Assembly: GCA_937907055.1 (NCBI GenBank) | Contig: CALCTW010000031.1 | Location: 1-12,860 of the forward strand | DNA length: 12,860 bases | Origin: an uncultured Clostridia bacterium | GTDB taxonomy: Bacteria > Bacillota > Clostridia > Christensenellales > Aristaeellaceae | Direction of reading: 5' to 3' | Shown here: positions 132 to 12,860 of the stretch, piece after piece | Layout: each line of letters begins with the position of its first letter | Position numbering within the stretch: the stretch's first letter is position 1 | The notes under the pieces: generated by a model | What the model was told of the DNA's origin: nothing | The model's input: only the letters and a program-made list of their open reading frames with translations | Database searches by the model: none | Program-made: the position numbers and the translations under genes

Positions 132-1298
132 TCAGGGATTGGCGTACAGGCGGGTCGCGCCGCCGGGCGCGTCGGACAGGCTGTTACCATAGTAGATCGT
201 GCCGTTTCCGCCCTCCCATACATAACTGTACGAGGTAGGCACCTTCACACTGCTGCCGGAGGAAGTCGTGTAGTCATTCTGATCAAACATATAATCCGAG
301 AAGCGGTCGGAGGAATAGCTGCCGGTGTATGTATAGGACATGGAGTTTTCCACCATGGAGAAGGTCAGGGCGGTCATGGAAGCCATGTAGGCCGAGCTGG
401 CCGCGCACATCATGTTGATCTCGGTGATCACCTTCTGCGCGATCTCCGCGGTCAGCCGGTCATTCAGCGCCATCATTTCGTCATTGACCGATGTATTTTC
501 CACAAAGGTGCTGAACGCCCCGTCGTGGATCCTCTCATAGCTTTCAAAGGGGCACCACAGCACATAATAGCAGGGCACCTGCCATACGATATTGGTGATA
601 GAAGCGCCGTAATCGGCAGATGAATAACGATAGGCATCCACCTCCGCCATCACGCAGATGCAATACTTTTTGCCGTTTTCGGTGTAGGTGTACACACGCT
701 GCGCCGCGGTCGTCTCGATCCAGTCCACATACATCCCGTACGTTGCCAGACCGGGCGCCACATTGGTACGGATGAGTTCATAGTTATCATTCAGCCGTCC
801 GGCACAGGCGGACATGTCTTCACTCCTGTAATACACGGCATCAGCCGCCCATTCCCTGGCCAGCGCGTCGCAATAGCCGTCCGCGTCCACATAGGTGCGC
901 ATGAAGCTCATCGTCTGAAGATCCAGCCCGCCCTCCTCATGCTGCAGCAGCGGATGGCTGGAATAAACACGCTGGATATAATCTTCTCCATAATAATACT
1001 TCATCCGCGCGTCGTCGGTCTTGCTGTCCAGAATGACCGATACGCGAACAGGATGCCCCAGCGTGGTATTCTCATCGCAATTGTTGATGATGCGCACCGC
1101 GGTATAACCATCCGGCAGCGCGTATTGCCCCATCACGGCTGTATCCCAGTCAATGGGCCTGATGGTAAAGCCGGCTGTGCCGGACGAGCGCGCGGGAGTC
1201 GGAGAGGGCGCTTTTGTGCTGATCCCGGGAACAGCCGCGTTTGCGGACACGGTAAACAACAGCAGCACCGCAACTAAAATGGAAAGAACACGTTTCAT
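132..1298 (-). CDS. Secreted protein of unknown function (388 aa; Sec signal peptide, 8 Cys, Ser/Tyr/Thr-rich C-terminus)
   Basis: Long ORF in the track (132..1481). I place the start at ATG 1298-1296 because AAAGGAG (1312-1306, minus strand) sits 8 nt upstream. The product then begins MKRVLSILVAVLLLFTVSANA-AVPG, a classic signal peptide with an ANA-A cleavage site. The longer track start would overlap the AraC gene end. I recognise no family motif. Confidence 0.8.
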   Translation of the reverse strand: MKRVLSILVAVLLLFTVSANAAVPGISTKAPSPTPARSSGTAGFTIRPIDWDTAVMGQYALPDGYTAVRIINNCDENTTLGHPVRVSVILDSKTDDARMKYYYGEDYIQRVYSSHPLLQHEEGGLDLQTMSFMRTYVDADGYCDALAREWAADAVYYRSEDMSACAGRLNDNYELIRTNVAPGLATYGMYVDWIETTAAQRVYTYTENGKKYCICVMAEVDAYRYSSADYGASITNIVWQVPCYYVLWCPFESYERIHDGAFSTFVENTSVNDEMMALNDRLTAEIAQKVITEINMMCAASSAYMASMTALTFSMVENSMSYTYTGSYSSDRFSDYMFDQNDYTTSSGSSVKVPTSYSYVWEGGNGTIYYGNSLSDAPGGATRLYANP

Positions 1299-1380
1299 CC
1301 GGAAAACTCCTTTCATCTTTGGGATGGCCGTTCTATGTCTTGTGACAAAAGAACAGCCGTCTCCGTTCGTCTGTGATCGC

Positions 1381-1386
1381 ATTATA
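1381..1386 (-). promoter_or_regulatory. Candidate -10 box (perfect TATAAT on the minus strand) for the secreted-protein gene
   Basis: The AT-rich 130-nt gap between the AraC stop (1429) and ATG 1298 contains attata at 1381-1386, which is TATAAT on the minus strand. TTGAAA (1420-1415) is 28 nt upstream, too far to be its -35. No convincing -35 was found. Confidence 0.3.
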
Positions 1387-1428
1387 TTACTTATGATTCC
1401 ATATTTATATCCGATTTCAATAAAATCC

Positions 1429-2397
1429 TTATTCCTCGGTATAGATCTTCCTGAATTCGGTGGGCGTGCAGTTATGCACATTCATAAACACGCGGCTGAA
1501 GGTGGCCAGCGAACCAAAGCCCACGCGTCTCGCGATCTCATTTACAGGCTCCCGCGTGGAGATCAGCAGAAAATCTGCCTGCGCCAGACGGCGGCGGTTC
1601 AGGTATTCGGTAAAGGACATACCGGCATAGGCGTTGAACAAACGGGAAAAATAGAACCGTGAAACACCGGCGACCTCGGCCACCCTGTCCAGCGAGATGG
1701 GACCGGTCTGGTTCTGCTCGATATATACCAGCACACGGTTCATCATCTCCGCGTTGGCGGTATAGGCCACGGTTCCTTCTTCCGCGTTCTGTTCCTTCAG
1801 GATCCTGCGGCCTACGATCGCGTAGAACTGCATCAGATAGCCGTAACACTCCATGTTCCACATGGGACGCGCCTGTTCGTAGCATTCCGCCAGCTTCAGC
1901 AGCAGGTCATACGCCTCACGGCCGTCCGGGGTATCATTGCCGAAATAGACAGGACTGCGCAGACGATGACTGATGAGCGGCATATCACGCAAAACCCCCA
2001 GACTGTCCGTTTCAAAAATGAACAGATAGCGCACCGTGCCGTCTTCATTTTTCATCGCGTGACCGGCCATGGACGGCACGATCAGTATGTGGCCGGCCTC
2101 CACCCTGCAGGAGATATCCTCTACCGTGTATTCGATCTCCCCCTCCACACACAACGCGATCTCCACAGCGCTGTGATGGTGTCCCGAGCAGGCATAGCCC
2201 TTATCATAGGGCCACACACGAATCGTGGAATGCTCCCTGTAGGAAGGCACCTCCTTGGTGCCCATCAGAATGCGGAAGCCCTGCGGATAACGGGAAGGCC
2301 ACGCGTCCGGCCCGGATTCACCCGCCCTTTCATTACCGGATCTGAGCTGCAGCGCGGCCGCGGCCTCCGGCAGTGTTTTTCTTTCTTTGTCTGGCAT
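1429..2397 (-). CDS. AraC-family transcriptional regulator (N-terminal cupin/AraC-binding-like domain, C-terminal double HTH)
   Basis: 322-aa ORF. The C-terminus reads ISLDRVAEVAGVSRFYFSRLFNAYAGMSFTEYLNRRRLAQADFLL...EIARRVGFGSLATFSRVFMNVHNCTPTEFRK, the canonical AraC/XylS HTH pair. The N-terminal half has a His-rich cupin-like segment (GHHHSAVEIALCVEGE). GGAG lies 7 nt upstream of ATG 2397. Confidence 0.9.
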   Translation of the reverse strand: MPDKERKTLPEAAAALQLRSGNERAGESGPDAWPSRYPQGFRILMGTKEVPSYREHSTIRVWPYDKGYACSGHHHSAVEIALCVEGEIEYTVEDISCRVEAGHILIVPSMAGHAMKNEDGTVRYLFIFETDSLGVLRDMPLISHRLRSPVYFGNDTPDGREAYDLLLKLAECYEQARPMWNMECYGYLMQFYAIVGRRILKEQNAEEGTVAYTANAEMMNRVLVYIEQNQTGPISLDRVAEVAGVSRFYFSRLFNAYAGMSFTEYLNRRRLAQADFLLISTREPVNEIARRVGFGSLATFSRVFMNVHNCTPTEFRKIYTEE

Positions 2398-2567
2398 ACT
2401 TGTTCTCCATGATTGATTGTGATAATATATTCTCCGCGAATGGATGTTTTTCCTGCTTTTGGCCTGACGGATCCGTCTTTTCCGGCCGGATGACCGCCTT
2501 TCTTCCGGCCGCGGAGAAAAAAGCCGAAAAACGCCCCTTCAAATACGCGAAGACGGCAAAAAAATGC

Positions 2568-2596
2568 TTGACGCGGTCAACGCGTTATGGTAATAT
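2568..2596 (+). promoter_or_regulatory. Sigma-A type promoter of the infC-rpmI-rplT operon
   Basis: TTGACG (2568-2573), a 17-nt spacer, then TAATAT (2591-2596) preceded by TGG (2588-2590), giving an extended -10. An A-tract (AAAAAAA, 2558-2564) just upstream of the -35 resembles an UP element. Confidence 0.7.
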
Positions 2597-2602
2597 ATTT
2601 CT

Positions 2603-2753
2603 GCATGAAGCAGAGGCTGCCCGCCTCTCACCCGGCGAATTCCGTTTTGCCGGTGTTACAGGCAATCATTTTTGTTTGCACGCGGCGGGTAGTATGCCCG
2701 CCGCTTTTCATGTATTCACCCTTTTAAGCGCGCCGTATGGCGCCGAATTTCCC
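2603..2753 (+). promoter_or_regulatory. Structured 5' leader of infC-rpmI-rplT, consistent with a ribosomal-protein L20 leader (transcription attenuation)
   Basis: About 150 nt lie between the predicted transcription start and the infC RBS. It contains hairpins AGAGGC/GCCTCT (2612-2628) and CCGGC/GCCGG (2632-2653) and a terminator-like hairpin at 2682-2708. The position matches the L20-responsive leader known upstream of infC in Firmicutes. I cannot run a covariance model. Confidence 0.55.
2682..2708 (+). terminator. Leader attenuator (intrinsic terminator-like hairpin) upstream of infC
   Basis: GCGGCGGG (2682-2689), loop TAGTATG, CCCGCCGC (2697-2704), followed by TTTT (2705-2708). It lies about 60 nt upstream of the infC start. 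Confidence 0.6.
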
Positions 2754-2766
2754 GGAGGTGTTACAC

Positions 2767-3318
2767 ATCAGCGCTGAATTACTCATTAATGAAGAGATCC
2801 GTGACCGTGAAGTGCGCGTGATCGACGCGGAAGGCAATCAGCTGGGCATCCTGCCCACCGACAAAGCCATCCAGATGGCTGAAGATGCCGGCCTGGATCT
2901 GGTCAAGATCGTGCCCACCGCGCAGCCCCCCGTTTGCAAACTGATGGACTATGACAAGTATCGCTTCGAGCAGAGCAAGCACGAACGCGAGATGCGCAAG
3001 AATCAGAAGGTCATTTCCCTCAAGGAAGTGCAGCTGAGCGCCACCATCGAAGAAAACGATGTCAATGTCAAGGCCAAGGCTGCCATCAAATTCCTGCAGA
3101 ACGGTGACAAGGTAAAGGTCTCCATTCGCTTCCGCGGCCGTCAGATCGCTCACAGTGATATCGGCATGAAGGTCATGCTGGACTTTGCCGAGCGGGTCAA
3201 GGATGTTTCCATCGTGGAAAAGCGCCCCGCCATCGAAGGCCGTAACATGATCATGATCCTGGTTCCCAAGACGGAAAAAGCCGCCAAGGCCGCGTCCAGC
3301 GCCCCCAAGAAGGCTTGA
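2767..3318 (+). CDS. infC: Translation initiation factor IF-3, probably initiating at a non-AUG codon (ATC 2767)
   Basis: The translation ...[86 protein letters not shown]...[14 protein letters not shown] is unmistakably IF-3. GGAGGTG (2754-2760) sits 6 nt upstream of in-frame ATC 2767. The track's ATG at 2737 has no SD and would add about 10 residues ahead of the usual IF-3 N-terminus. Confidence 0.9.
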
Positions 3319-3383
3319 CCATAGTGTGTCCCTCCATCGGGACACGCCACAATCTCACTATTCCCGGAAGGAGGAACTCTCGT

Positions 3384-3584
3384 ATGCCCAAGCAAAAGAC
3401 TCATCGCGGCGCCGCAAAACGCTTCTCCCTCACCAAGACCGGTAAGGTAAAGCATAAGAAGATGAACGCCAATCACATCCTGAACAAGAAGACGACCAAG
3501 CGCATTCGTCACCTGCGTAAGGGCGGTATGCTGGCCAACAACGCCGAAGCTGCCACCATCCGTACGCTGATCCCTTACAAATAA
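3384..3584 (+). CDS. rpmI: 50S ribosomal protein L35
   Basis: [46 protein letters not shown]... is canonical L35. GGAAGGAGGAA (3366-3376) precedes ATG 3384. The track's longer ORF start (3315) overlaps the infC end and lacks an SD. Confidence 0.95.
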
Positions 3585-3611
3585 GCCGCGCCTTAGAGGA
3601 GGAAAACAACA

Positions 3612-3959
3612 ATGGCAAGAATTAAGAGGGCTGTGAATGCCCACAAGAAGCGCCGTAAGGTGTTTAAGCTTGCGAAGGGTTACTTCGGAAGCAAATCCAA
3701 GCAGTACCGCACCGCGAGTGAACAGGTACGCCGTTCTCTGCGTTATGCCTATGCCGGCCGCAAGATGAAGAAGCGCGACTTCCGCACCCTGTGGATCGCC
3801 CGTATCAACGCCGCTGCCCGCATCAACGGCATCAGCTACAGCAAGTTCATCGATGGCCTGAAGAAGAACGGCATCGAAGTGAACCGCAAGATGCTGGCTG
3901 ACCTGGCTGTGAACGATCCCGCTGCTTTCGCTCAGCTGGTCGAGATCGCCAAGGCTTAA
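3612..3959 (+). CDS. rplT: 50S ribosomal protein L20
   Basis: [39 protein letters not shown]...[15 protein letters not shown] is canonical L20. GAGGAGG (3596-3602) is upstream. Confidence 0.97.
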
Positions 3960-3970
3960 GTCGCTTTCTC

Positions 3971-4004
3971 AGCACTTTCCGCAAGGAAAGTGCTTTTTTG
4001 TTTT
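3971..4004 (+). terminator. Intrinsic terminator of the infC-rpmI-rplT operon
   Basis: Perfect 10-bp stem AGCACTTTCC (3971-3980) / GGAAAGTGCT (3985-3994), GCAA loop, then TTTTTTGTTTT. Confidence 0.85.
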
Positions 4005-4194
4005 CGTACCAACTATCAACCTTTTCATTATCAAACTTTATAAATAATCCACGCAGCGCAGTCATTAATCATCATCTGTCACTGACCGTTCCTTAAATAT
4101 AAACATTGTTTATGTTTCCAAAAACTTTTCGAGGCGAATAAGCATCTATATAGTGTAAACCTTGCTTGAGGAATGCACAGAAAGGAGTGAAAAC

Positions 4195-4491
4195 ATGGAC
4201 GCAGAGGTATTCCAATCCCTTGTGCTTGCAATCGAACCACTTTTATACCGTGTCAGCTGTACATATTTGAAGCAAGAAGCTGACCGTGCCGACGCAGTGC
4301 AGGAAGCATTGATGCGCGCGTGGTCCAAGAGAAGCCTTTTGAGAGATTCGGAACATTTTAATGGCTGGATCGTCCGCATTTTAATCAACTGTTGCAAAGA
4401 AATATTACGAAAGCAAAAGCGTCATGCGCATGACCAACTGGATCCGGAGTGGGGCGGCGATGTTTCCACCATCAGCTCGTCACCACTTTAG
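4195..4491 (+). CDS. ECF-type sigma-70 family factor, region-2 part, ending at an in-frame TAG (4489-4491)
   Basis: AAAGGAG (4181-4187) lies 7 nt upstream of ATG 4195. The translation is MDAEVFQSLVLAIEPLLYRVSCTYLKQEADRADAVQEALMRAWSKRSLLRDSEHFNGWIVRILINCCKEILRKQKR, a sigma-70 region 2 pattern. Under code 11 it stops after 98 aa, before any region 4. Confidence 0.85.
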   Translation: MDAEVFQSLVLAIEPLLYRVSCTYLKQEADRADAVQEALMRAWSKRSLLRDSEHFNGWIVRILINCCKEILRKQKRHAHDQLDPEWGGDVSTISSSPL

Positions 4492-4677
4492 GATGCGCTA
4501 TCCATGCTTACTCCGGAGCTGAGGCTGATTATCACCCTACACTATATGGACGGCTACTCCATCGAAGAAATCAGTCGTCTGTTCGCCTGTCCGACCGGCA
4601 CTGTAAAGAGCCGTATGCGAGCCGCCCGTCTTAAACTTCGCGATATCATGAACATGGAATGGAGTGATGAAGAATGA
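4492..4677 (+). pseudogene. Same-frame continuation of the sigma gene encoding region 4 (HTH); a separate piece only because of the TAG at 4489-4491
   Basis: The codon directly after the TAG continues in the same frame: DALSMLTPELRLIITLHYMDGYSIEEISRLFACPTGTVKSRMRAARLKLRDIMNMEWSDEE, then TGA at 4675-4677. This is the textbook sigma region 4.2 motif. The stop overlaps the next ATG as ATGA (4674-4677). Confidence 0.8.
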
Positions 4678-6224
4678 CAGAGAAAAAGATCAATGAGTTA
4701 TTCAAAACCAATACCGCATCTCCCTCCCCTCTTTTTTCAAGCACAGTTCGTGAGACACTTCATACGATCACGACTTGTTCCGAAATCAGCCGGACGGCAC
4801 ATCATTTTTCGATGAGAGGTGTATTAACGCTGGCGTGCGCGCTAATGTTAATTTTACCCGCTGCACTTATTCCTCTGTTTTCAGTGCAGATGTCTTCAAG
4901 CACTACGCATACCCCACTGCCTTCCGATGGTGAATGCAAGCTTCATCGCGTGACCGAAAATCTGATCGTACAGCCAAGCGACCTATGTGATCCTCTGGCG
5001 ATTCATTTATCCATCTCCTCCGGTCTTTACCATGAACCCTTTCAGTTAAAGATCTCATCTGCCGATCCGGCAGACACGATTCTGTATACGATTGATGGTA
5101 GCATTCCCTCAGTTGAAAACGCGATGATTTACAACGATCCGATCACGATTGATCACTCTGCTGTGATCCACGCGTGTGTGTTGAAAAAAGACGGCAGTAC
5201 AGGGGACGTTTGTGTCGGTAACTATCTGATGTTGTCCAAAGAGCCCACAGTAGATGTGATCTCACTTGTCGTTGATCCCGAGAGTTATCATGATTCAAAG
5301 AAAGGTTACACTTCAAAACATAACAACATCGGCACACTTTCAGCTGATGAAGTTGAGAAGATTGCGATGAACGGAAGCATGCTCTATATTCCGCTCACCG
5401 GCAACACAGATGCATTTTCACGGGATCTGCTTCTGAGCAGAAGCAGATACTATATCAGCACCCATGACATCTGCTATCCGCAGGACAATATGCAGATTGA
5501 CATGACAGCTGATCTTCTTCCGCCTTCTCTGTTTGATGAGGGCGGGACCCTTGGATACTCTGCCTGTCAATTATGGAACGGTGGATTTGATTCCGCGGCA
5601 ACACGCATTTCCAATGCCTTGGGAGTGCAAGCCCTCCGGCGTTTCTCTTCCCTGGATATCATATATCCATCCTGCAAGCCAGTCTCTGTCTATGTAAATG
5701 GTGATTATATCGGACAATACTGGCTCAAGGAAGTCATCGGTCCTGAAATGATCGCGCGAAAGACAGGCATACCGGCAGAGCAATTCGAGGGCGATGCATT
5801 TTATGAAAGTGTATATCATCAGGGTAAACTCGATACGATCATCAATGAACTGAGCGCATTATCAACCGGCACCGATGAAAAAGCACGCGAATATCTTGAT
5901 GAGAACATTAACATTGACAGCTTTCTTGACTGGTATACAACCGCGATCTACTTCGGAAACTGTAACTTCTATATGGACGCATATCGTGAACCTGTAAGCG
6001 GAAAATGGAAGTTCATTGCAGTTGGTTATGACTCTGCATTCTTCAGTTCCAATACATATCGAGAGTTTTTCCTGGCTGATAATTGGAAGGCTTCCGAAAC
6101 ACTATACAGAAAAATCATCGCAGTCGACGAATATAGGGAACTGTACCTTCAAAAACTCGGTACTTTGATTCAAACCATCACACCCGAGGTGCTTATGGAA
6201 GAAGTCGATCAATGCATTGCGTAG
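4674..6224 (+). CDS. Single-pass membrane protein (anti-sigma-like position) with extracytoplasmic chitobiase/hexosaminidase-C-like and CotH-kinase-like domains, ending at an in-frame TAG (6222-6224)
   Basis: ATG 4674 overlaps the sigma stop (ATGA). There is a short N-terminal segment, then a hydrophobic helix VLTLACALMLILPAALIPLFSV. GLYHEPFQLKISSADPADTILYTIDGSIPSVENAMIYNDPITI resembles the CHB_HEX_C-type module common at CotH N-termini. VSVYVNGDYIGQYWLKEVIGPEMI and FLDWYTTAIYFGNCNFYMDAYREPVSGKWKFIAVGYDSAFF match the CotH family pattern. These calls come from memory of the family, not a search. Confidence 0.8.
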   Translation: MTEKKINELFKTNTASPSPLFSSTVRETLHTITTCSEISRTAHHFSMRGVLTLACALMLILPAALIPLFSVQMSSSTTHTPLPSDGECKLHRVTENLIVQPSDLCDPLAIHLSISSGLYHEPFQLKISSADPADTILYTIDGSIPSVENAMIYNDPITIDHSAVIHACVLKKDGSTGDVCVGNYLMLSKEPTVDVISLVVDPESYHDSKKGYTSKHNNIGTLSADEVEKIAMNGSMLYIPLTGNTDAFSRDLLLSRSRYYISTHDICYPQDNMQIDMTADLLPPSLFDEGGTLGYSACQLWNGGFDSAATRISNALGVQALRRFSSLDIIYPSCKPVSVYVNGDYIGQYWLKEVIGPEMIARKTGIPAEQFEGDAFYESVYHQGKLDTIINELSALSTGTDEKAREYLDENINIDSFLDWYTTAIYFGNCNFYMDAYREPVSGKWKFIAVGYDSAFFSSNTYREFFLADNWKASETLYRKIIAVDEYRELYLQKLGTLIQTITPEVLMEEVDQCIA

Positions 6225-6476
6225 ATTGTAACAGAGATGAGCGCTCATTTTGAACACTATTCCGAATCCCTGTACACAGTGATGAACGATATACCCGAGA
6301 TGGTCTTCATCCCGGATTTCGACACATGGTGTATAAGGATTGATCAACTGCAAAACAGCGTGATCCTCAATCGCCCCGCTCGTCTTATCAAGCGCGTACA
6401 ACAGGATTTTTCACTCAACGAAGAAGAGCTGATCCGATACTTCGGTCCGTTCGCAGAAACCGCCTTAGCCAAATAA
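6225..6476 (+). pseudogene. Same-frame continuation of the CotH-like gene (83 codons to TAA 6474-6476); contains the track ORF 6237..6476
   Basis: 6222 and 6237 are in the same frame as 4674. After the TAG the frame reads IVTEMSAHFEHYSESLYTVMNDIPEM...QLQNSVILNRPARLIKRVQQDFSLNEEEL, which looks like the C-terminal tail of CotH-family proteins. No SD precedes ATG 6237. The only terminator follows 6476, not 6224. Confidence 0.7.
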
Positions 6477-6500
6477 CATCGTTCGTTCTTCGCATCCTCT

Positions 6501-6533
6501 CGCCTGTCGGTCTTTTCCGGCAGGCGTTTTTTT
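6501..6533 (+). terminator. Intrinsic terminator after the sigma/CotH-like gene pair
   Basis: 10-bp stem CGCCTGTCGG (6501-6510) / CCGGCAGGCG (6517-6526) with one G-U pair, loop TCTTTT, then TTTTTTT (6527-6533). Confidence 0.8.
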
Positions 6534-6608
6534 ATTTACCACTCAGTTTTTCGTGTTTTTCTGCCGGACACGGCAAAATCAGGTAAGTTGGTGACCATTT
6601 TTTCCGTC

Positions 6609-6637
6609 TTTTATTTGAGCGATCCATCTTGTATAAT
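6609..6637 (+). promoter_or_regulatory. Candidate promoter (extended -10) of the solute-binding-protein/kinase genes
   Basis: TGTATAAT at 6630-6637 (TG plus a perfect TATAAT). With 17-nt spacing the -35 is only TTTTAT (6609-6614), which is weak. It lies about 35 nt upstream of the RBS GGAGG (6659-6663). Confidence 0.5.
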
Positions 6638-6671
6638 ATGATAGTATTCCTATGCTGAGGAGGTTTATGCT

Positions 6672-8186
6672 TTGCTGAAAAGATGCTTCTCCACGCTGAT
6701 GACCATCATCATGCTCTTTGGCACAACGGCTATTGCCGCCGAAACCAACACCGAAAGCACCCCCGAGAAGACGTTTAAAATGGCGGGTTATGAATCCTAC
6801 ACCACCCGTACCTGGGCCAAAAACGCCTTTTTTGCCCGGATGGAGGAAAATACCGGTATCCACTTTGAGTTTGACGAGTACACCGACAAAAACAACTGGG
6901 ATACCTATAAGAACAGCCTGACAGCCGATGCCGCGCTGCCCGATGTGCTTTTCAAGGCCAACCTCAGCGGCGGCGAGGCCATTGACCTGATGGAAAAGGG
7001 CGTGCTGATCGATCTGAAGCCCTACATCACGGCCGAAAAGATGCCCAACCTCACCGCGCTCCTTCAGCAGTTCCCGGATGTGATGGATGCCATCACCCTG
7101 CCGGGCGGACAGGTCGCCGCGCTGCCCTATATCAACGAAACGCCCCTTAACTGCGGTATCTGGGTCAACAAGACCTTCCTCTCCGCCTGGGGGCATGATA
7201 TGCCCACCGATAAAGACAGCTTTACCGAAATGCTGCGCTTCTTTGTAAACGGTGATCCCAACCGCAACGCCAAGAAGGATGAAGTGGGCCTTTCCTTCAT
7301 CGGCCCCTTCGATCTCAAGTTCCTCATGCACGCGTTCGGGCTGAATGCCAATAACTACAACATGGCCGCCCGGAACGGAGAAGCCGTCTTTGTTCCTGAA
7401 GAACAGGCGTATTACGATTTCGTCTCCTGGCTGCACGATCTGTACACCGAAGGTCTGATCGATCAGAAGGGCTTTATCAACAATACCACCACCCGTACCG
7501 TGACGGATGAGAATGCCACCGCCACCTATGGTGTCTTTATCAGCCAGAGTCCTACAGATGTCATTCCCGCCTCGTGGGACAGCAGATACACCCTGATGAT
7601 GCCGCTCACCTATCAGGGCAAACAGGTCTACCGCGATTACTTCGGCAACTGCCTCACCGGCACCTTTGCCATCACCGCGGCCTGCACGGATGTGGACAGC
7701 ATCATTGCCTGGGTGGATCTGCTTTACAGCCCCGAAGGCGCTACGCTGGCCAATGCCGGTAAGCAGAACGTGGAATACGTGATCGAACCGAATGGCACCT
7801 GGGTGCTCACCGATCCTCAGAACAGTTATTATATGCAGATCTCGCAGCTGATCTCCGGAAGCAATCCCTACCCGGGATATTCCTGCGATGATTTCCAGAT
7901 GAAGTATAATCAGAACAGCGTGGTCGATCGTTACGCGGAATACCGCGCGCTGAACGTGATCGCCGTCCGACCCTTCCCCTATTTCACCCTCAGCAACGCG
8001 GAAGAGAGCGAAGTGTTCGTGATGCAGCTGGATCTCGGCCGCGAAGTGGATGTGCAGCTGGCACGCTGGGTGCGCGGGGATGAAGAACTGACGCCCGACA
8101 GCTACAGGGCCTTCATTGACAAGCTTTATACCGAATACCGCCTTCAGGAATTCAAGGATTTCTGGCAGAACATTCTGAGCCGATAA
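6672..8186 (+). CDS. Extracellular solute-binding protein (large family-1 ABC-type carbohydrate-binding protein), TTG start
   Basis: 504-aa ORF. GAGGAGG (6657-6663) lies 8 nt upstream of TTG 6672. The nearby ATG 6667 is out of frame and stops after 3 codons. Signal peptide is MLKRCFSTLMTIIMLFGTTAIA-AE. Size and composition match the roughly 500-aa LplA/LipO-like sugar-binding proteins. The family call is from general resemblance only. Confidence 0.75.
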   Translation: MLKRCFSTLMTIIMLFGTTAIAAETNTESTPEKTFKMAGYESYTTRTWAKNAFFARMEENTGIHFEFDEYTDKNNWDTYKNSLTADAALPDVLFKANLSGGEAIDLMEKGVLIDLKPYITAEKMPNLTALLQQFPDVMDAITLPGGQVAALPYINETPLNCGIWVNKTFLSAWGHDMPTDKDSFTEMLRFFVNGDPNRNAKKDEVGLSFIGPFDLKFLMHAFGLNANNYNMAARNGEAVFVPEEQAYYDFVSWLHDLYTEGLIDQKGFINNTTTRTVTDENATATYGVFISQSPTDVIPASWDSRYTLMMPLTYQGKQVYRDYFGNCLTGTFAITAACTDVDSIIAWVDLLYSPEGATLANAGKQNVEYVIEPNGTWVLTDPQNSYYMQISQLISGSNPYPGYSCDDFQMKYNQNSVVDRYAEYRALNVIAVRPFPYFTLSNAEESEVFVMQLDLGREVDVQLARWVRGDEELTPDSYRAFIDKLYTEYRLQEFKDFWQNILSR

Positions 8187-8203
8187 CAGAAAGGGGTACG
8201 AAG

Positions 8204-9490
8204 ATGAATCACTATTCGCAGATGATGTCCCGACTGAAAACGCCCGAGGCCATGAAGCGCTTCTTCACCCTGTATGGCAAGCGCGAAGGTGAACTGGCTC
8301 GCCAGCTCACCCGCTATACGGAACTTGTCAAGCGCCATGAAGATATTTTCCATTCCGATAAACCCCTCTGCATGGTATCCGCCTCCGGCCGTACGGAGAT
8401 CGTAGGCAATCACACCGATCACCAGAACGGCCGTGTGATGGCCGCCGCGGTAAATCTGGACACCGTGGCCGCGGTCACGCCCCGCAGCGATATGCTGGCC
8501 GAGGTCCATTCCGCCGGTTTCCCGGTCGTTCAGCTGGATCTGTCCGATCTTTCCGTCCGTGAGGAGGAAATGGGCACCAGCGCCGCGCTCATCCGCGGTG
8601 TCGCTGCCGGCATGGCAGAAAGAGGTTATCAGGTGGGCGGCTTCGATGCCGCCATCACCAGCGATGTGCTGGCCGGAAGCGGTCTTTCCTCTTCTGCCGC
8701 CTTCGAAGTGCTGATCTGCACCATTCTGGATAAGCTCTATAACGGCATGACGGTGGATGCCGTCACCCGCGCCAAGATCAGCCAGTACGCTGAAAACAGG
8801 TATTTCGGCAAGCCCTCCGGATTGATGGATCAAATGGCTTCCTCCGTGGGCGGCCTCGTCTATATCGATTTTAAGAATCTCCCTGCCGATGTGGAGATCT
8901 CACCCCTGAACTTCGATTTTGCCGCTGCCGGTTATTCCCTTGTCGTTGTCAATACCCGCGGCAGTCATGATGACCTGACAGACGCTTACGCTTCCATCCG
9001 CACTGAAATGACGGCTGTGGCGGAATGCATGGGCGAAAAGGTGCTGCGCAGCGCGAACAGTGAGGAATTCCGTGTGAATATCCGCGCAGTCGCGGAAAAG
9101 TGCGGTGAACGCGCCTGTCTGCGCGCCCTGCACTTCTTCCAGGAGAATGACCGTGTGAAGCAGATGAAGACCGCCGTCCAATCCGGGGATCTTCAGAAGA
9201 TGCTCTCCCTCATCACCGCCAGCGGCCGCAGCAGCTGGGAAAAGCTGCAGAACGTGTATATGCCCGGCACGCATCAGCCCATGGCGCTCGCGCTGGCTTC
9301 CAGTGAGGATCTTCTGGACGGCAAAGGCGCGTGGCGTGTGCATGGCGGCGGTTTTGCCGGCACTACGCTCAACTTTGTGCCGGATAACACTCTGAACCTC
9401 TTCATTTCCCGCATGGAAGCGCTGTTCGGAAGCGGCTGCTGCTTTGTGCTGAATGTGCGTCCCGAAGGCGCCGGTGTCGTTTTTGACTGA
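8204..9490 (+). CDS. GHMP-family sugar kinase, galactokinase-like
   Basis: GRTEIVGNHTDHQNG corresponds to the galactokinase N-terminal signature (GR.N.IGEHTDY). LAGSGLSSSAAFEV is the GHMP ATP-binding motif. GGGFAGT lies near the C-terminus. AAGGGG precedes ATG 8204, 17 nt after the upstream stop. Confidence 0.8.
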   Translation: MNHYSQMMSRLKTPEAMKRFFTLYGKREGELARQLTRYTELVKRHEDIFHSDKPLCMVSASGRTEIVGNHTDHQNGRVMAAAVNLDTVAAVTPRSDMLAEVHSAGFPVVQLDLSDLSVREEEMGTSAALIRGVAAGMAERGYQVGGFDAAITSDVLAGSGLSSSAAFEVLICTILDKLYNGMTVDAVTRAKISQYAENRYFGKPSGLMDQMASSVGGLVYIDFKNLPADVEISPLNFDFAAAGYSLVVVNTRGSHDDLTDAYASIRTEMTAVAECMGEKVLRSANSEEFRVNIRAVAEKCGERACLRALHFFQENDRVKQMKTAVQSGDLQKMLSLITASGRSSWEKLQNVYMPGTHQPMALALASSEDLLDGKGAWRVHGGGFAGTTLNFVPDNTLNLFISRMEALFGSGCCFVLNVRPEGAGVVFD

Positions 9491-9538: not shown

Positions 9539-9991
9539 ATGATCTCAAACAACCGTGAAATGACAGAAAAACTGGGCAGGGCGCTGGCAGAACAGCTGCA
9601 GCCCGGCGACACCGTGCTGCTCGACGGCCCCATGGGCGCCGGGAAAAGCGAGCTGGCCCGCGGGATCGCGCGCGGGCTGGGCGTGCAGGGTCCTGTCCCT
9701 TCACCCTCCTTCACCATCCTGAATTGCTACAATGAGGGAACCATCCCCCTTTTCCACTTTGACTGGTGGCGCATCGGGGATGAAAGCGAACTGTACGATA
9801 TCGGCGCGGAGGAATATGTGTCCGGCTCCGGCGTGTGTCTGATCGAATGGTATCAGAACGGTCCGTCTCTTGTGCCGGAGGATGTTCTGCGGGTGCGTAT
9901 CGTACCGCTTGATGATGAAAGACGTGAGATTACCCTGATCCCCGAAGGTCATTTCCGGGAGATCACACTGAAGGAAGATGACATCCAATGA
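9539..9991 (+). CDS. tsaE: tRNA t6A37 threonylcarbamoyladenosine biosynthesis protein TsaE (YjeE ATPase)
   Basis: P-loop LDGPMGAGKSELARGIARGLG, then SPSFTI and HFDWWR motifs. GGAGGA (9525-9530) lies 8 nt upstream of ATG 9539. The track's ATG 9500 lacks an SD. Confidence 0.88.
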   Translation: MISNNREMTEKLGRALAEQLQPGDTVLLDGPMGAGKSELARGIARGLGVQGPVPSPSFTILNCYNEGTIPLFHFDWWRIGDESELYDIGAEEYVSGSGVCLIEWYQNGPSLVPEDVLRVRIVPLDDERREITLIPEGHFREITLKEDDIQ

Positions 9992-10692
9992 ATCTGTTAC
10001 TGATCGATACATCCGGTCCCGTCTGCGGCGTGGCTGTGCTGAAGAACGGCGCTGTCCTTTACGAGGCGCATGCCATCAATAAACTCACCCATTCCGTCAG
10101 CATGATGCCCATGGTGGAAGAAGCGCTGATCCGCAGTGCCCTTACCATCGAGCAGATCGATCTGTTCGCCTGTGTGAAAGGTCCCGGTAGCTTTACCGGC
10201 GTCCGCATCGGCGTGAGCGCTGTGAAGGCGCTGGCGCATGTGCATCAGAAGCCCTGCATCGGCGTGGACGCGCTGGAAGCGATGGCGCAGGGCGTCAGCA
10301 TGTTTGACGGTCTCATCTGCCCTGTACAGGACGCGCGCGCCGGTCAGGTGTACGGCGCTGTTTTTGAAGGGTTCTCCATGAAGCGCCTGATGGCGGATAC
10401 CCCGATCCGCGTTGAAGAATTCTGCGAGCAGGCAAAAGCGCTGGCGAACGGCAAAAAGCTGCTGTTCCTGGGCGATGGCATGCCGGTCCAGAAGGATCGT
10501 ATTGCCGCGCTGCTTGGGGATCAGGCTGTCTTCGCGCCGCAGAACGCTTCCTATCTGCACGCTGCCGCGGCGGCTGTACTGGCCGCGCGTGACACGGACA
10601 AGGCGGAATCTTATCTCACGCTCTCCCCTCTGTACCTGCGTCCCCCGCAGGCGGAACGACAGAAGAATCTGAAGGAGTTGGGTCATGAGTGA
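9988..10692 (+). CDS. tsaB: tRNA t6A37 biosynthesis protein TsaB (YeaZ)
   Basis: MNLLLIDTSGPVCGVAVLKNG...GPGSFTGVRIGVSAVKALA is typical TsaB. Its start overlaps the tsaE stop as ATGA. Confidence 0.9.
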   Translation: MNLLLIDTSGPVCGVAVLKNGAVLYEAHAINKLTHSVSMMPMVEEALIRSALTIEQIDLFACVKGPGSFTGVRIGVSAVKALAHVHQKPCIGVDALEAMAQGVSMFDGLICPVQDARAGQVYGAVFEGFSMKRLMADTPIRVEEFCEQAKALANGKKLLFLGDGMPVQKDRIAALLGDQAVFAPQNASYLHAAAAAVLAARDTDKAESYLTLSPLYLRPPQAERQKNLKELGHE

Positions 10693-11179
10693 CATCATCT
10701 GCCGCCGCATGACCATACAGGATGTCGAACAGGTGCAGGCCATTGAAGCCGCCACCTTTGCCATGCCGTGGACTGTGCAGGATTTTGTTAAGGAAATGAC
10801 CACCAACAAGTGCGCGCGTTATATCGTGGCGCAGGATGGTGATGAGATCGTGGGGTTCGCCGGCGCGTGGCTCATTCTGGATGAAGGTCATATCACCAAT
10901 ATCGCCGTCCGGGCGGATCACCGCGGGCGCGGCATCGGCAATTTGCTGACCGCAGCGCTTCTGCAGTACGCCGCCAATATGGGCGTGGCGTATATGACCC
11001 TTGAGGTACGAAAGAGCAATCTGATCGCGCAGCAACTGTACACCACCTACGGCTTTGTCAAGCTGGGCGTGCGCAAGAAATATTATGAAGATAACGGCGA
11101 GGATGCCCTGCTGATGGTGTGTGACCATATGCCGGATGCCGTGGCCGATTTCACCGAAGAAGAAACCGTATCAGAATAA
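10685..11179 (+). CDS. rimI: Ribosomal-protein-alanine N-acetyltransferase RimI (GNAT)
   Basis: Contains the GNAT core ITNIAVRADHRGRGIGNLLTAALLQYA...MTLEVRKSNLIAQQLYTTYGF. It sits directly after tsaB with an 8-nt overlap. AAGGAG (10672-10677) is upstream. Confidence 0.85.
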   Translation: MSDIICRRMTIQDVEQVQAIEAATFAMPWTVQDFVKEMTTNKCARYIVAQDGDEIVGFAGAWLILDEGHITNIAVRADHRGRGIGNLLTAALLQYAANMGVAYMTLEVRKSNLIAQQLYTTYGFVKLGVRKKYYEDNGEDALLMVCDHMPDAVADFTEEETVSE

Positions 11180-11190
11180 GGAGCTGTACC

Positions 11191-11658
11191 ATGGAAAAGA
11201 TCGCAAGCTTCACCATCGATCACAACCGTCTCCTCCCCGGCCTGTATGTCAGCCGTGTGGACAAGGCCGGCAGCGAATATGTGACCACCTTTGATATGCG
11301 CATCACCGCGCCGAACCGCGAGCCTGTCATCGATATGCCCGCCCTGCACACGCTGGAACATCTGGGCGCTACCTTTCTCCGCAATTCCGCCTGCAAAGAT
11401 GAAGTGCTCTACTTCGGCCCCATGGGCTGCCGCACCGGCTGCTATATCCTGATGCACGGCAAGCTGACGAGCGAAGATGTTGCCGGTCTTGTGACCGAAA
11501 TGTGCGATTTCATCTTAAACTTTGAGGGTGAGATCCCCGGCGCGCGTCCGGAGGAATGCGGCAACTACAGCGAGCAGAACCTGAACATGTGCAAATATTA
11601 CGTGCGCAGATACCGCGATGAATTGATCCTCGAAAAGCGCTATACTTATCCGGACTGA
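11191..11658 (+). CDS. luxS: S-ribosylhomocysteine lyase (autoinducer-2 synthesis)
   Basis: FTIDH, the HTLEHL metal-binding motif, and GPMGCRTGCY. AAGGAG (11178-11183) lies 7 nt upstream of the ATG. Confidence 0.95.
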   Translation: MEKIASFTIDHNRLLPGLYVSRVDKAGSEYVTTFDMRITAPNREPVIDMPALHTLEHLGATFLRNSACKDEVLYFGPMGCRTGCYILMHGKLTSEDVAGLVTEMCDFILNFEGEIPGARPEECGNYSEQNLNMCKYYVRRYRDELILEKRYTYPD

Positions 11659-11674
11659 GCCGTTTTCGCAAAGC

Positions 11675-11712
11675 AAAAGAGGCATTCTTCGATCTGAAGA
11701 AGCCTCTTTTTT
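11675..11712. terminator. Bidirectional intrinsic terminator between the convergent luxS and thioesterase genes
   Basis: AAAAGAGGC-A-TTCTTC (11675-11690), loop GATCT, GAAGAA-GCCTCTTTT (11696-11710), with the T run extending to 11712. The A-tract on the other side gives a T-run for the minus strand. Confidence 0.8.
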
Positions 11713-11741
11713 GTATATGCAGGCGTGTTTTTAACGCTTTT

Positions 11742-12197
11742 TCAGCGTGTTTTTCGTCTTTCCGCCGCTTCGTCCCACAGCCGTTGCTGTTCTTCGTTTT
11801 CAATGATCAAGCGCGGGATCATGACCGGCTTTTCGTGCTCATCCAAAGCGACCATGGTGAAAAACGCTTCATTGATCAGTTCCTGTTCACCGTCCAGCAG
11901 TTCCAGATAACAGCACACGCGGATATCCATGCTGGTACGGCCTGTATAGACCACCTCGCCCGTCAGCACCAGCGTGTCATTGGCACGGGCCGGCGCGCGG
12001 AAACTGAGATTCTGCACACGCGCGGTCGTCACATTGGTACCGGCGTGCCGTCTGGCGGTAACCGCTGCCACGATGTCCATCCAGCTCATCAGCTGACCGC
12101 CGAAAAGACGGGAATAGCCGTTCAGGTTGGCCTGTGTCAGCAGCTGTACCTGTGTGGTAAAGGAATCTGACACATGTTTTTCAGTTCTTTCAGCCAT
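11742..12197 (-). CDS. Acyl-CoA thioesterase (hotdog fold, YciA/BFIT-like)
   Basis: ANLNGYSRLFGGQLMSWMDIVAAVTARRHAG.NVTTARVQNLSFRAPARANDTLVLTGEVVYTGRTSMDIRV is the typical hotdog thioesterase pattern. I prefer ATG 12197, with GGGAGGG at 12213-12207 upstream, over the track's GTG 12206. Confidence 0.8.
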   Translation of the reverse strand: MAERTEKHVSDSFTTQVQLLTQANLNGYSRLFGGQLMSWMDIVAAVTARRHAGTNVTTARVQNLSFRAPARANDTLVLTGEVVYTGRTSMDIRVCCYLELLDGEQELINEAFFTMVALDEHEKPVMIPRLIIENEEQQRLWDEAAERRKTR

Positions 12198-12239
12198 CTG
12201 TCTCACCCTCCCATGTTGTCTGTCTGTATGCCTGTCGGA

Positions 12240-12860
12240 TCAATAGACCAGATAATCGCACTCCAGCCGTCCGTTGTACAGGCGCTTTTTGTAGGTGGCG
12301 CGCCGTCCTACGCACTTTTCAAAGCCCACATAAGCCGTGATCGCGCACAGGCGGCTCTCTCCGGTACGGGCGCGGAGCTTCATCAGATCCTTATACAGGT
12401 ATTCACAGTGCTTACGATCACTCATACGCTCACCGTAGGGCGGATTGCAGATGAAACACAGCGGCTTCTCAGGTGTCAGTTCCAGTTCCTTCAGATCCTT
12501 CTGAAATACGGTGATCCGACCGCCGAGCCCGGCCTGTACGATGTGCTTTTTGCACAGTTTCAGGGCTTCGGGATCGATATCGCTGCCGCTGATGTCGTGG
12601 ATCTTCTCCGGATCGAAGCGCTGTTCCGCTTCCTCGCGCAGGGCGCGGATCGCCTCGCGGTCCACTGTCTTCCAGCCCTCCATAGCAAACACGCGGCGCA
12701 GACCGGGAGCGCGGTCGCTCTGGATAAACGCCGCTTCGATCAGCAGTGTGCCTGTGCCGCAGCAGGGATCGTGAAGGGCGTTTTCCCTGCGCCAGGGGGA
12801 TTGCAGCACCAGCGCGGCGGCCAGTGTCTCACGCAGCGGCGCTTCGCCGTTCCAGGTGCG
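12240..12860 (-). CDS. Class I SAM-dependent methyltransferase of the THUMP/UPF0020 (RlmL/YpsC-like) type; 5' end lies outside the window
   Basis: HDPCCGTGTLLIEAA is the SAM-binding motif I and ICNPPYGER is the NPPY catalytic motif. The frame stays open from 12809 to the window edge (12860), reading ...TWNGEAPLRETLAAALVLQSPW, typical of this family, so the track's M at 12809 is internal. Confidence 0.8.
   Translation of the reverse strand, partial: RTWNGEAPLRETLAAALVLQSPWRRENALHDPCCGTGTLLIEAAFIQSDRAPGLRRVFAMEGWKTVDREAIRALREEAEQRFDPEKIHDISGSDIDPEALKLCKKHIVQAGLGGRITVFQKDLKELELTPEKPLCFICNPPYGERMSDRKHCEYLYKDLMKLRARTGESRLCAITAYVGFEKCVGRRATYKKRLYNGRLECDYLVY

Follow-up and report, generated by a model that had tools for sequence, protein, structure and literature searches.

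We identified single in-frame TAG codons in two adjacent and otherwise functional-looking genes, encoding an extracytoplasmic function (ECF) sigma factor and a membrane-anchored CotH protein, within a 12,860-nucleotide chromosomal segment of an uncultured Clostridia bacterium (contig CALCTW010000031.1; this whole stretch is referred to below as the window). We consider it reasonably probable that both TAGs are UAG codons that are read through by the host ribosome, such that both genes still give full-length proteins. The TAGs are probably not gene-killing nonsense mutations, and TAG is probably no longer a reliable stop signal in the window lineage. We additionally propose, more tentatively and with less than even confidence, that the whole rumen Clostridiales R-7 group has lost the UAG stop via a fixed change in release factor 1 (RF1; Gln181Lys and Arg179Cys) after TAG had nearly gone, and that the window species is re-using UAG as a sense codon. 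Such a history would amount to codon capture observed partway through, and would be the first case of a reassigned UAG among free-living bacteria.

The DNA comes from an uncultured bacterium of the R-7 group (GTDB Christensenellales CAG-74). The closest homologues of aspartyl-tRNA synthetase (AspRS) were those of uncultured rumen and gut Clostridia (87-88% identity) and, at 83% identity, that of Clostridiales bacterium FE2010, which belongs to the R-7 group and to the GTDB Christensenellales family CAG-74 (PMC8248865). The contigs and loci compared with the window, designated by L-numbers, comprise ~80 kb of the window species and ~480 kb of relatives, or ~560 kb searched in all. Within these, L015-L074 and L083 are referred to as R-7 loci, and L075-L098 as the outgroup.

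A previous sequence-only reading of the window had reported one premature TAG in each of the two genes, and no frameshift or in-frame TGA or TAA in either, all of which our analysis reproduces (TAG 4489-4491 and 6222-6224). The frame of the sigma factor gene extends from ATG 4195 to TGA 4675-4677, with the TAG at codon 99 as its sole in-frame stop. The product contains Pfam matches to Sigma70_r2 (residues 10-76) and Sigma70_r4_2 (residues 98-148), the latter of which crosses the TAG. The gene encodes sigma-70 regions 2 and 4 only, and overlaps a membrane-protein gene downstream by an ATGA motif, as is the layout of ECF sigma/anti-sigma pairs. Its nearest intact orthologue (P0151) is 160 residues long and 76% identical; the next-closest homologue, on contig L099, belongs to an unrelated organism of 60% G+C with a different anti-sigma gene. 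The column corresponding to codon 99 is variable among 119 homologues (Tyr 32, Arg 26, Glu 22, Lys 11, and others), and is occupied by CGG (Arg) in a second allele of the same operon that we identified on contig L012. The ATG at position 4504, which opens a 57-residue region-4 open reading frame after the sigma TAG, likewise corresponds to a Lys codon in this intact allele (L012 10310-10312), indicating that both the ATG and the TAG are derived in the window lineage.

The CotH gene begins at ATG 4674, within the ATGA overlap, and extends to TAA 6474-6476, with the TAG at codon 517 as its sole in-frame stop. The protein consists of an N-terminus of ~45 residues followed by a hydrophobic stretch (about residues 49-69, as read off the translation), a CHB_HEX_C_1 (CHB_HEX_C/Fn3_assoc) domain at residues 115-179, and a CotH domain (PF08757; 63 bits against a cut-off of 23.8) at residues 324-533, which crosses the TAG; its anti-sigma function is putative. 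A HMMER search recovered 4,932 relatives, of which those aligning in a single stretch cover residues ~111-592, and an alignment of 18 full-length homologues continues past the TAG column up to the C-terminus. Invariant residues of the family are kept on both sides of the TAG, with six of them downstream. The TAG column itself is heterogeneous in these 18 homologues (Gln 5, Met 3, Glu 2, Ala 2, Val 2, Leu 2, Trp and Gly), and the L012 allele has GAG (Glu) at this position. The operon terminator lies 25 nucleotides after the TAA of the full-length frame, and no terminator was found after TAG 6222. When the CotH protein was used in a word-indexed search for homologues, the query itself was the sole match. 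We additionally considered decay of the CotH tail, on account of His528 and Tyr529 replacing the Arg and Trp of the family, and rejected it, as the same residues are found in the L012 allele, which is free of this TAG.

Both genes lie within a strain-variable cassette (~4003-6564) with a G+C content of 41-50%, compared to 53-63% in its flanks. Conspecific contigs, found by exact look-up of ribosomal protein L20, are ~97% identical to the window in the core. The cassette is absent from four of these (L002-L005), in which homology with the window ends at position 4002 and ~150 bp of unrelated sequence takes its place. Cassettes bearing the window's TAGs were identified in L001 (both TAGs) and in L006 and L010 (the sigma TAG). 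Since these are independent assemblies from other samples, the TAGs are not sequencing errors, and we rejected this explanation. The cassettes of the window and L001 are ~2% diverged, with 47 differences and a single indel, of 3 bp and in frame, and their ratios of non-synonymous to synonymous substitution (dN/dS) are 0.18 for the sigma factor and 0.35 for CotH.

The L012 allele extends the comparison to a far greater depth. L012, together with L014, represents a 25-kb contig from a metagenome-assembled genome (MAG), reached via P0151, and its flanks are ~97% identical to L002, indicating that this strain is of the same species or nearly so. Its cassette (L012 ~9800-12400) occupies the same chromosomal site and is deeply diverged from that of the window, with 62% amino acid identity in CotH and dS of 1.2-1.8; the dS of the flanking genes of L012 and the window is ~0.07, against dS > 1.2 in the cassette. 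The cassette locus is hypervariable or frequently exchanged. A separate TAG is present in the L012 CotH gene, at codon 264, which reads CAT in the window and TAT in L001. Between the window and L012 alleles, dN/dS lies within 0.09-0.24 for all segments, whether before or after a TAG, and is 0.13 downstream of the sigma TAG99, 0.13 downstream of the CotH TAG264, and 0.13 downstream of the CotH TAG517 (83 codons). This low ratio indicates that the sequence downstream of each cassette TAG has been translated for most of its history.

We identified further in-frame TAGs when the conspecific contigs were re-read with TAA and TGA as sole stops. In L001, a DUF4230 gene has a TAG at codon 177, within a DUF4230 match that spans it (residues 49-207). 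In L012, one ABC exporter has a TAG at codon 99, spanned by an ABC_membrane match (residues 75-298), and a second has a TAG at codon 445, before the ABC signature and Walker B, with BmrA-type PDB chains aligning over residues 27-570. A thioredoxin gene of L012 has a TAG at codon 92 of a protein that matches the Thioredoxin family over residues 5-99, and a TAG-bearing gene for a 295-residue protein has no Pfam family match, its continuation resting on the open frame and the coding score. Finally, codon 20 of aspS, which encodes AspRS, is TAG in L014 and CAG in L002, the two genes differing at 21 of 1427 nucleotides; the OB-fold domain match of the protein begins at residue 21, one residue after the TAG. 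Thus, a domain or homologue alignment spans seven of the nine TAG sites, the exceptions being aspS, where the match starts just after the TAG, and the 295-residue protein without a family.

Across the species we counted 33 non-redundant genes and 10,142 codons, with nine distinct in-frame TAGs. The same 33 genes were free of frameshifts and of in-frame TGA and TAA codons, and none of them ended in TAG. That all nine interruptions are TAG has a probability of about 2-5e-3 under random nonsense mutation, a result that is significant yet not overwhelming because TAG holds ~50% of the single-step nonsense opportunity in these genes. We tried a methylation hot spot of Dcm type (CCWGG to CTAGG) as a source of the TAGs, and rejected it, as the nine TAG contexts have no common motif. 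The signature of pseudogenes, mixed lesions with dN/dS near 1 after the lesion, is not what these genes display, as they have TAG only, no frameshifts, and dN/dS of 0.13 downstream.

We investigated the use of TAG as a terminator in the window and in the relatives of its species. The 15 genes of the window end in nine TGA, six TAA and no TAG, as our independent gene count confirmed for the tally given in the sequence-only reading. Similarly, none of the 70 pipeline-called genes in the relatives L015-L018 (82 kb) ends in TAG, and none is interrupted. In R-7 loci, TAG ends 9 of 313 genes (~2-3%), as identified with a codon-usage-scored caller of open reading frames, compared to 35 of 161 genes (~22%) in the outgroup loci, where a length-based caller was used. 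At R-7 gene ends, this share is three to four times below the 8.8% that TAG makes up of the three stop triplets. In every frame of the R-7 loci, TAG is also the least frequent of the stop triplets, and is 8-fold rarer than TGA at equal base composition; counted in all frames, the TAG triplet occurs at 2.4 per kb in the R-7 loci and at 10.3 per kb in the outgroup. The depletion has as its possible causes a mutation or repair bias, or restriction avoidance. An automatic count of in-frame TGA and TAA in coding-like surroundings consisted for the most part of adjacent genes in the same frame and of repeated antisense artefacts. Thus, the check on terminator frequency proposed with the sequence-only reading, as made on this partial sequence, upholds the scarcity of TAG, in 0 of 33 genes of the species and in the R-7 loci relative to the outgroup, and also reveals a few genuine terminal TAGs.

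For RF1, we identified prfA on L018, beside prmC and sua5, with a product that is a bona fide RF1 (TIGR00019, 458 bits). Its decoding loop reads HCVKRVPDT, compared to HRVQRVPxT in the RF1 of Escherichia coli, Thermus thermophilus and Streptococcus mutans, corresponding to the changes Arg179Cys and Gln181Lys (positions counted on the T. thermophilus chain in the alignment). A scan of JGI metagenomes with the L018 RF1 returned 80 loci. Cys179 and Lys181 were found in all 56 loci at 63-77% identity, giving, with L018, 57 of 57 R-7-like sequences (HCVKRVPxT), and Arg179 and Gln181 in 23 of 23 outgroup loci, at 48-53% identity (HRVQRVPxT). Gln181 (Gln185 in E. coli) hydrogen-bonds the third base of the stop codon, and binding by the Ala mutant is 20-fold worse (PMC3974865); the same residue is described as critical for reading G at the third position, and green-algal mitochondria in which UAG is a sense codon carry a mutation of it (PMC6821328). 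In two R-7-like contigs, we noted a tRNA-Trp (CCA) gene a few kb upstream of prfA (L058 1635-1708 and L064 7904-7975).

The mechanism that we propose would proceed in four steps. The R-7 family would first have nearly purged TAG, as is seen in the relatives. The RF1 of the family would then have acquired Arg179Cys and Gln181Lys, which are present in 57 relatives and are presumed in the window species. UAG would in consequence have been terminated poorly or not at all, which would allow a UAG inside a gene to be tolerated and decoded. Finally, TAG would have re-entered the reading frames of the window species, in which in-frame TAGs are observed, aspS among them. In RF1-deficient E. coli, UAG is decoded by near-cognate tRNAs (PMC6207430, PMC4333366), and near-cognate decoding of a poorly terminated UAG would fit the heterogeneous columns of the TAG sites as well as a dedicated suppressor would. 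The residues at the TAG columns are variable throughout, with Gln and Glu slightly ahead of Lys and Tyr (Tyr, Arg, Glu or Lys at sigma codon 99; Gln, Thr or Lys at AspRS codon 20; Gln, Met or Glu at CotH codon 517; and His or Tyr, in the alleles, at CotH codon 264).

Several observations weigh against this interpretation. Part of the rarity of TAG at gene ends is compositional, since TAG is depleted in all frames, and the few genuine terminal TAGs in the R-7 loci include those of prmC, sua5 and one gene with orthologues ending in TGA. All the sequences are metagenomic, and the prfA of the window species itself was unseen, its R-7 variant being a deduction from the 57 relatives. RF1 tolerates the exocyclic group being absent from position 3 of the stop codon (PMC5776981), one algal lineage with a mutated Gln181 retains UAG as a stop (PMC12574857), and Lys181 might still bind guanine. 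The aspS TAG is known from a single MAG contig, and no TAG was seen in the other core genes of the species, suggesting that decoding, if real, is recent or costly. ARAGORN found no tRNA with a CUA anticodon in the partial sequence available, which covers the ~80 kb of the species and the ~480 kb of relatives; the search for such a tRNA suggested by the sequence-only reading thus yielded nothing in its favour.

The most substantial alternative is ordinary decay, in which the window TAGs are independent nonsense mutations (of CAG, GAG or TGG to TAG) in a cassette that is being lost, and the other TAG-bearing genes are pseudogenes too. We consider this unlikely. The cassette is dispensable, as its absence from L002-L005 demonstrates, the TAG columns are variable, the TAGs are concentrated in strain-variable genes, and TAG by itself makes up about half of the single-step nonsense opportunities; pseudogenes with in-frame stops are moreover known to give rise to false calls of recoding (PMC8629427). 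The window and L001 differ at five codons after TAG 6222, every one by a non-synonymous change, which also counts against read-through and could mean a relaxed CotH tail, although this evidence is weak because several of the changes cluster in the last 20 bases, alongside changes just past the stop. Against decay, all nine interruptions are TAG and no frameshift occurs in ~10,000 codons, and dN/dS falls well short of 1 before and after the TAGs, at 0.09-0.24 downstream over dS > 1.2 and at 0.18-0.35 within the allele. Decay would furthermore render 9 of 33 genes dead, six of them on one 25-kb contig, would extend to the essential aspS, and would leave the change in RF1 and the avoidance of TAG stops at the level of the family as coincidences. 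A different origin for the same TAGs, and a very unlikely one, is a mismatch of genetic codes, whereby the cassette and islands came from a donor (phage, plasmid or bacterium) with TAG as sense, and persist, untranslatable, as relics in a host with the standard code. Gut phages with a recoded TAG are known (10.1101/2021.08.26.457843), the cassette allele of the window is foreign in composition (45% against 55% G+C), and strain-variable segments hold eight of the nine TAGs. However, the TAG-bearing genes of L012 are host-like in G+C (at 55%) and in G+C at third codon positions (GC3), a TAG is found in the core gene aspS, which is 98.5% identical between strains, and the dN/dS of 0.18-0.35 between the window and L001 indicates selection within the host population. 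We could find no phage hallmark genes, and the cassette matched nothing in IMG/VR, nor in collections of 50,697 phage records and 72,556 plasmids. Both the decaying locus and the recoded donor, which the sequence-only reading had put forward beside decoding by the host, are thus disfavoured.

Two further possibilities have in our view only a slight probability. In pyrrolysine-type decoding, a sub-variant of read-through, a host with pylTSBCD would insert pyrrolysine (Pyl) at UAG. TAG is rare as a terminator, as it is in Pyl-using archaea (10.1101/2024.09.30.615893; PMC12626013), and the TAG columns tolerate polar residues similar to Lys, but no pyl gene, tRNA-Pyl or methylamine methyltransferase was seen in the loci examined, and no TAG-bearing gene is from a known Pyl protein family, such that positive evidence is lacking. 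Equally improbable is that the genes are functionally split, with translation stopping at the TAG and restarting at ATG 4504 (sigma region 4) and ATG 6237 (CotH tail), and two polypeptides associating. The two-subunit sigma factor SigO-RsoA of Bacillus would provide a precedent. ATG 4504 lies four codons after the TAG with AGGA 10 nucleotides upstream, its Met is derived together with the TAG, and ATG 6237 similarly lies four codons after TAG 6222; there is, in contrast, no good Shine-Dalgarno sequence before 6237, and the CotH Met522 is invariant in the family and hence not a new start. Splitting also leaves unexplained the exclusive use of TAG and the TAGs at aspS codon 20, in the thioredoxin tail and in the ABC ATPases. 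Re-initiation could apply to the sigma gene, and not to the whole set of TAGs.

Reading-through of UAG by the host, which the sequence-only reading had listed as one of its options, is favoured by the nine TAG-only interruptions in 33 genes, the selection downstream of them, the scarcity of TAG at gene ends in the family, and the altered RF1 of the relatives.

Table. Features of the window and RF1 loci of its relatives
Feature	Position	Strand	Basis
Intrinsic terminator of infC-rpmI-rplT, marking the left edge of the variable cassette	3971..3994	+	Stem-loop then T-run
Strain-variable low-G+C cassette with the sigma and anti-sigma/CotH operon	4003..6564	+	Contig comparison, G+C
ECF-type sigma-70 factor gene, 160 codons including one TAG	4195..4677	+	Pfam, intact orthologue P0151
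In-frame TAG, sigma codon 99, in the linker just before region 4	4489..4491	+	Reading frame
Membrane-anchored anti-sigma-like CotH gene (putative anti-sigma function), 600 codons including one TAG	4674..6476	+	Pfam, homologue alignment
In-frame TAG, CotH gene codon 517, inside the CotH domain	6222..6224	+	Reading frame
Intrinsic terminator of the cassette operon	6501..6526	+	10-bp stem (8 G-C pairs) and T-run
R-7-like RF1 loci	L018 1666-2727; L019-L074, L083	- (L018)	HCVKRVPxT motif

The gene order of the window opens with an unknown 388-residue protein, an AraC regulator, infC-rpmI-rplT, the ECF sigma factor and the membrane CotH protein, and continues with a solute-binding protein, a GHMP kinase, tsaE, tsaB, rimI, luxS, a thioesterase and rlmL. 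The same order is found in a locus of a sister genus (L016), from which the cassette is absent. The solute-binding protein (504 residues) matched no Pfam family, and its gene (window 6672) has TTG as its apparent start in all strains. Exact look-ups with this protein and with a 516-residue CotH fragment gave no matches, and a scan of GTDB representatives with the solute-binding protein returned a best locus of only 46% identity, indicating that the window species was not among the representatives searched.

We additionally identified strain-specific differences around the same genes in other contigs. L001 contains two tandem DUF4230 genes (7406-8687, minus strand) between the AraC gene and infC, one with a TAG, that are absent from the window and L002. 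L012 contains an island of ~7 kb (~150-7230, equivalent to L014 ~220-7300) between the AraC gene and the gene for the 388-residue protein, with four TAG-bearing genes; the encoded proteins are a TetR regulator, two ABC exporters, a thioredoxin and small proteins of unknown kind, which together may form a cluster for peptide or bacteriocin export. The island genes are host-like in G+C (~50-55%) and in GC3 (0.60-0.69). A 961-residue Ig-like gene and a 164-residue gene of L001 and L002 are missing from L012.

Elsewhere in the R-7 group, a gene of L051 (~6713, minus strand) for a GlnQ-type ABC ATPase, with a match over residues 6-243, is interrupted by TAG at codon 64, upstream of all catalytic motifs save Walker A, at a site where a hydrophobic residue is usual in the GlnQ, HisP and ArtP proteins of E. 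coli. L035 (~4263, minus strand) has an in-frame TAG near the C-terminus of an unknown secreted protein. We also noted a 670-residue AspRS (P0272, on a 16,090-bp NCBI contig) with two internal tandem duplications of ~40 residues each; it stems from a related genome and is most likely a product of misassembly.

The loss of TAG as a reliable stop is without description for any free-living bacterium. All bacterial code changes known so far reassign UGA (PMC8629427), three codes are known in Bacteria (10.1101/2024.09.30.615893), and our searches of the literature turned up no instance of TAG or UAG recoding in Christensenellales or the R-7 group. If true, our proposal would add a new bacterial code variant in an abundant and cultivable rumen family, whose naturally occurring RF1 variant would be of interest to those who engineer the genetic code. 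From the data, the lineage seems to have reached a point in codon disappearance and capture at which the codon is rare, its release factor is altered, and it is first being used as sense. The proposal would also mean that R-7 genes are systematically mis-called, with the sigma factor, the ABC exporters and aspS being split or truncated by standard gene callers, and it bears on the interplay of R-7 hosts with TAG-recoded phages. R-7 isolates with complete genomes exist (FE2010, FE2011, XBB3002, R-7 and WTE2008).

The known systems that involve UAG as sense differ from the window species in their setting. Gut phages that read TAG as Gln (code 15; crAss-like and Lak phages) also have in-frame TAGs and are found in gut and rumen metagenomes, and decode these with suppressor tRNAs that have a CUA anticodon. 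Unlike these phages, which infect standard-code hosts, the TAGs identified here lie in chromosomal contigs, beside infC-rpmI-rplT, hisS, aspS, tsaB/E and luxS, and we saw no phage genes, suppressor tRNA or match to phage collections in the loci examined. In the archaeal code in which all TAGs are read as Pyl, UAG similarly specifies an amino acid and TAG is a very rare stop. In contrast, Pyl decoding needs pylTSBCD, is tied to methylamine methyltransferases, and is archaeal or limited to a few bacteria, with no sign of it here. E. coli strains of supE type and the RF1-deficient C321.deltaA tolerate UAG in genes, where it is decoded by suppressor or near-cognate tRNAs (Gln, Tyr, Lys and Trp), and low use of TAG terminators lowers the cost of UAG decoding in recoded E. 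coli (PMC6207430, PMC4333366). These strains are engineered or selected in the laboratory, whereas here a natural, population-level state would be involved, with the RF1 variant fixed across a family.

The bacterial reassignments of UGA (code 4 in Mycoplasmatales and some endosymbionts, and code 25 in Gracilibacteria and Absconditabacteria) share with the window species an in-frame stop in ordinary chromosomal genes, a rare or absent terminator and, as far as the relatives show, a change in the matching release factor. They concern UGA and RF2 (PMC8629427), in contrast to UAG and RF1 here, where RF1, as seen in the relatives, is altered and not lost. In-frame UAG is in addition still very infrequent in the window species (about 1 per 1,000 codons) and all but missing from its core genes, suggesting a stage that is early or leaky. 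Mechanistically, the closest parallel is in the mitochondria of sphaeroplealean green algae, in which Gln181 (T. thermophilus numbering) of the RF1-type factor mtRF1a is substituted and UAG is reassigned to sense (PMC6821328). The R-7 substitution differs in being Lys, together with Arg179Cys, and a later paper questions the sufficiency of the Gln181 change (PMC12574857). The algal case further concerns an organelle that has only a few genes and whose cognate tRNA has been identified, whereas the R-7 group is a free-living family with ~3.5-Mb genomes, for which the loci searched yielded no such tRNA. The order of events that we propose is nevertheless that proposed for the algal mitochondria, in which UAG becomes scarce, the release factor loses its contact, and UAG returns as a sense codon.

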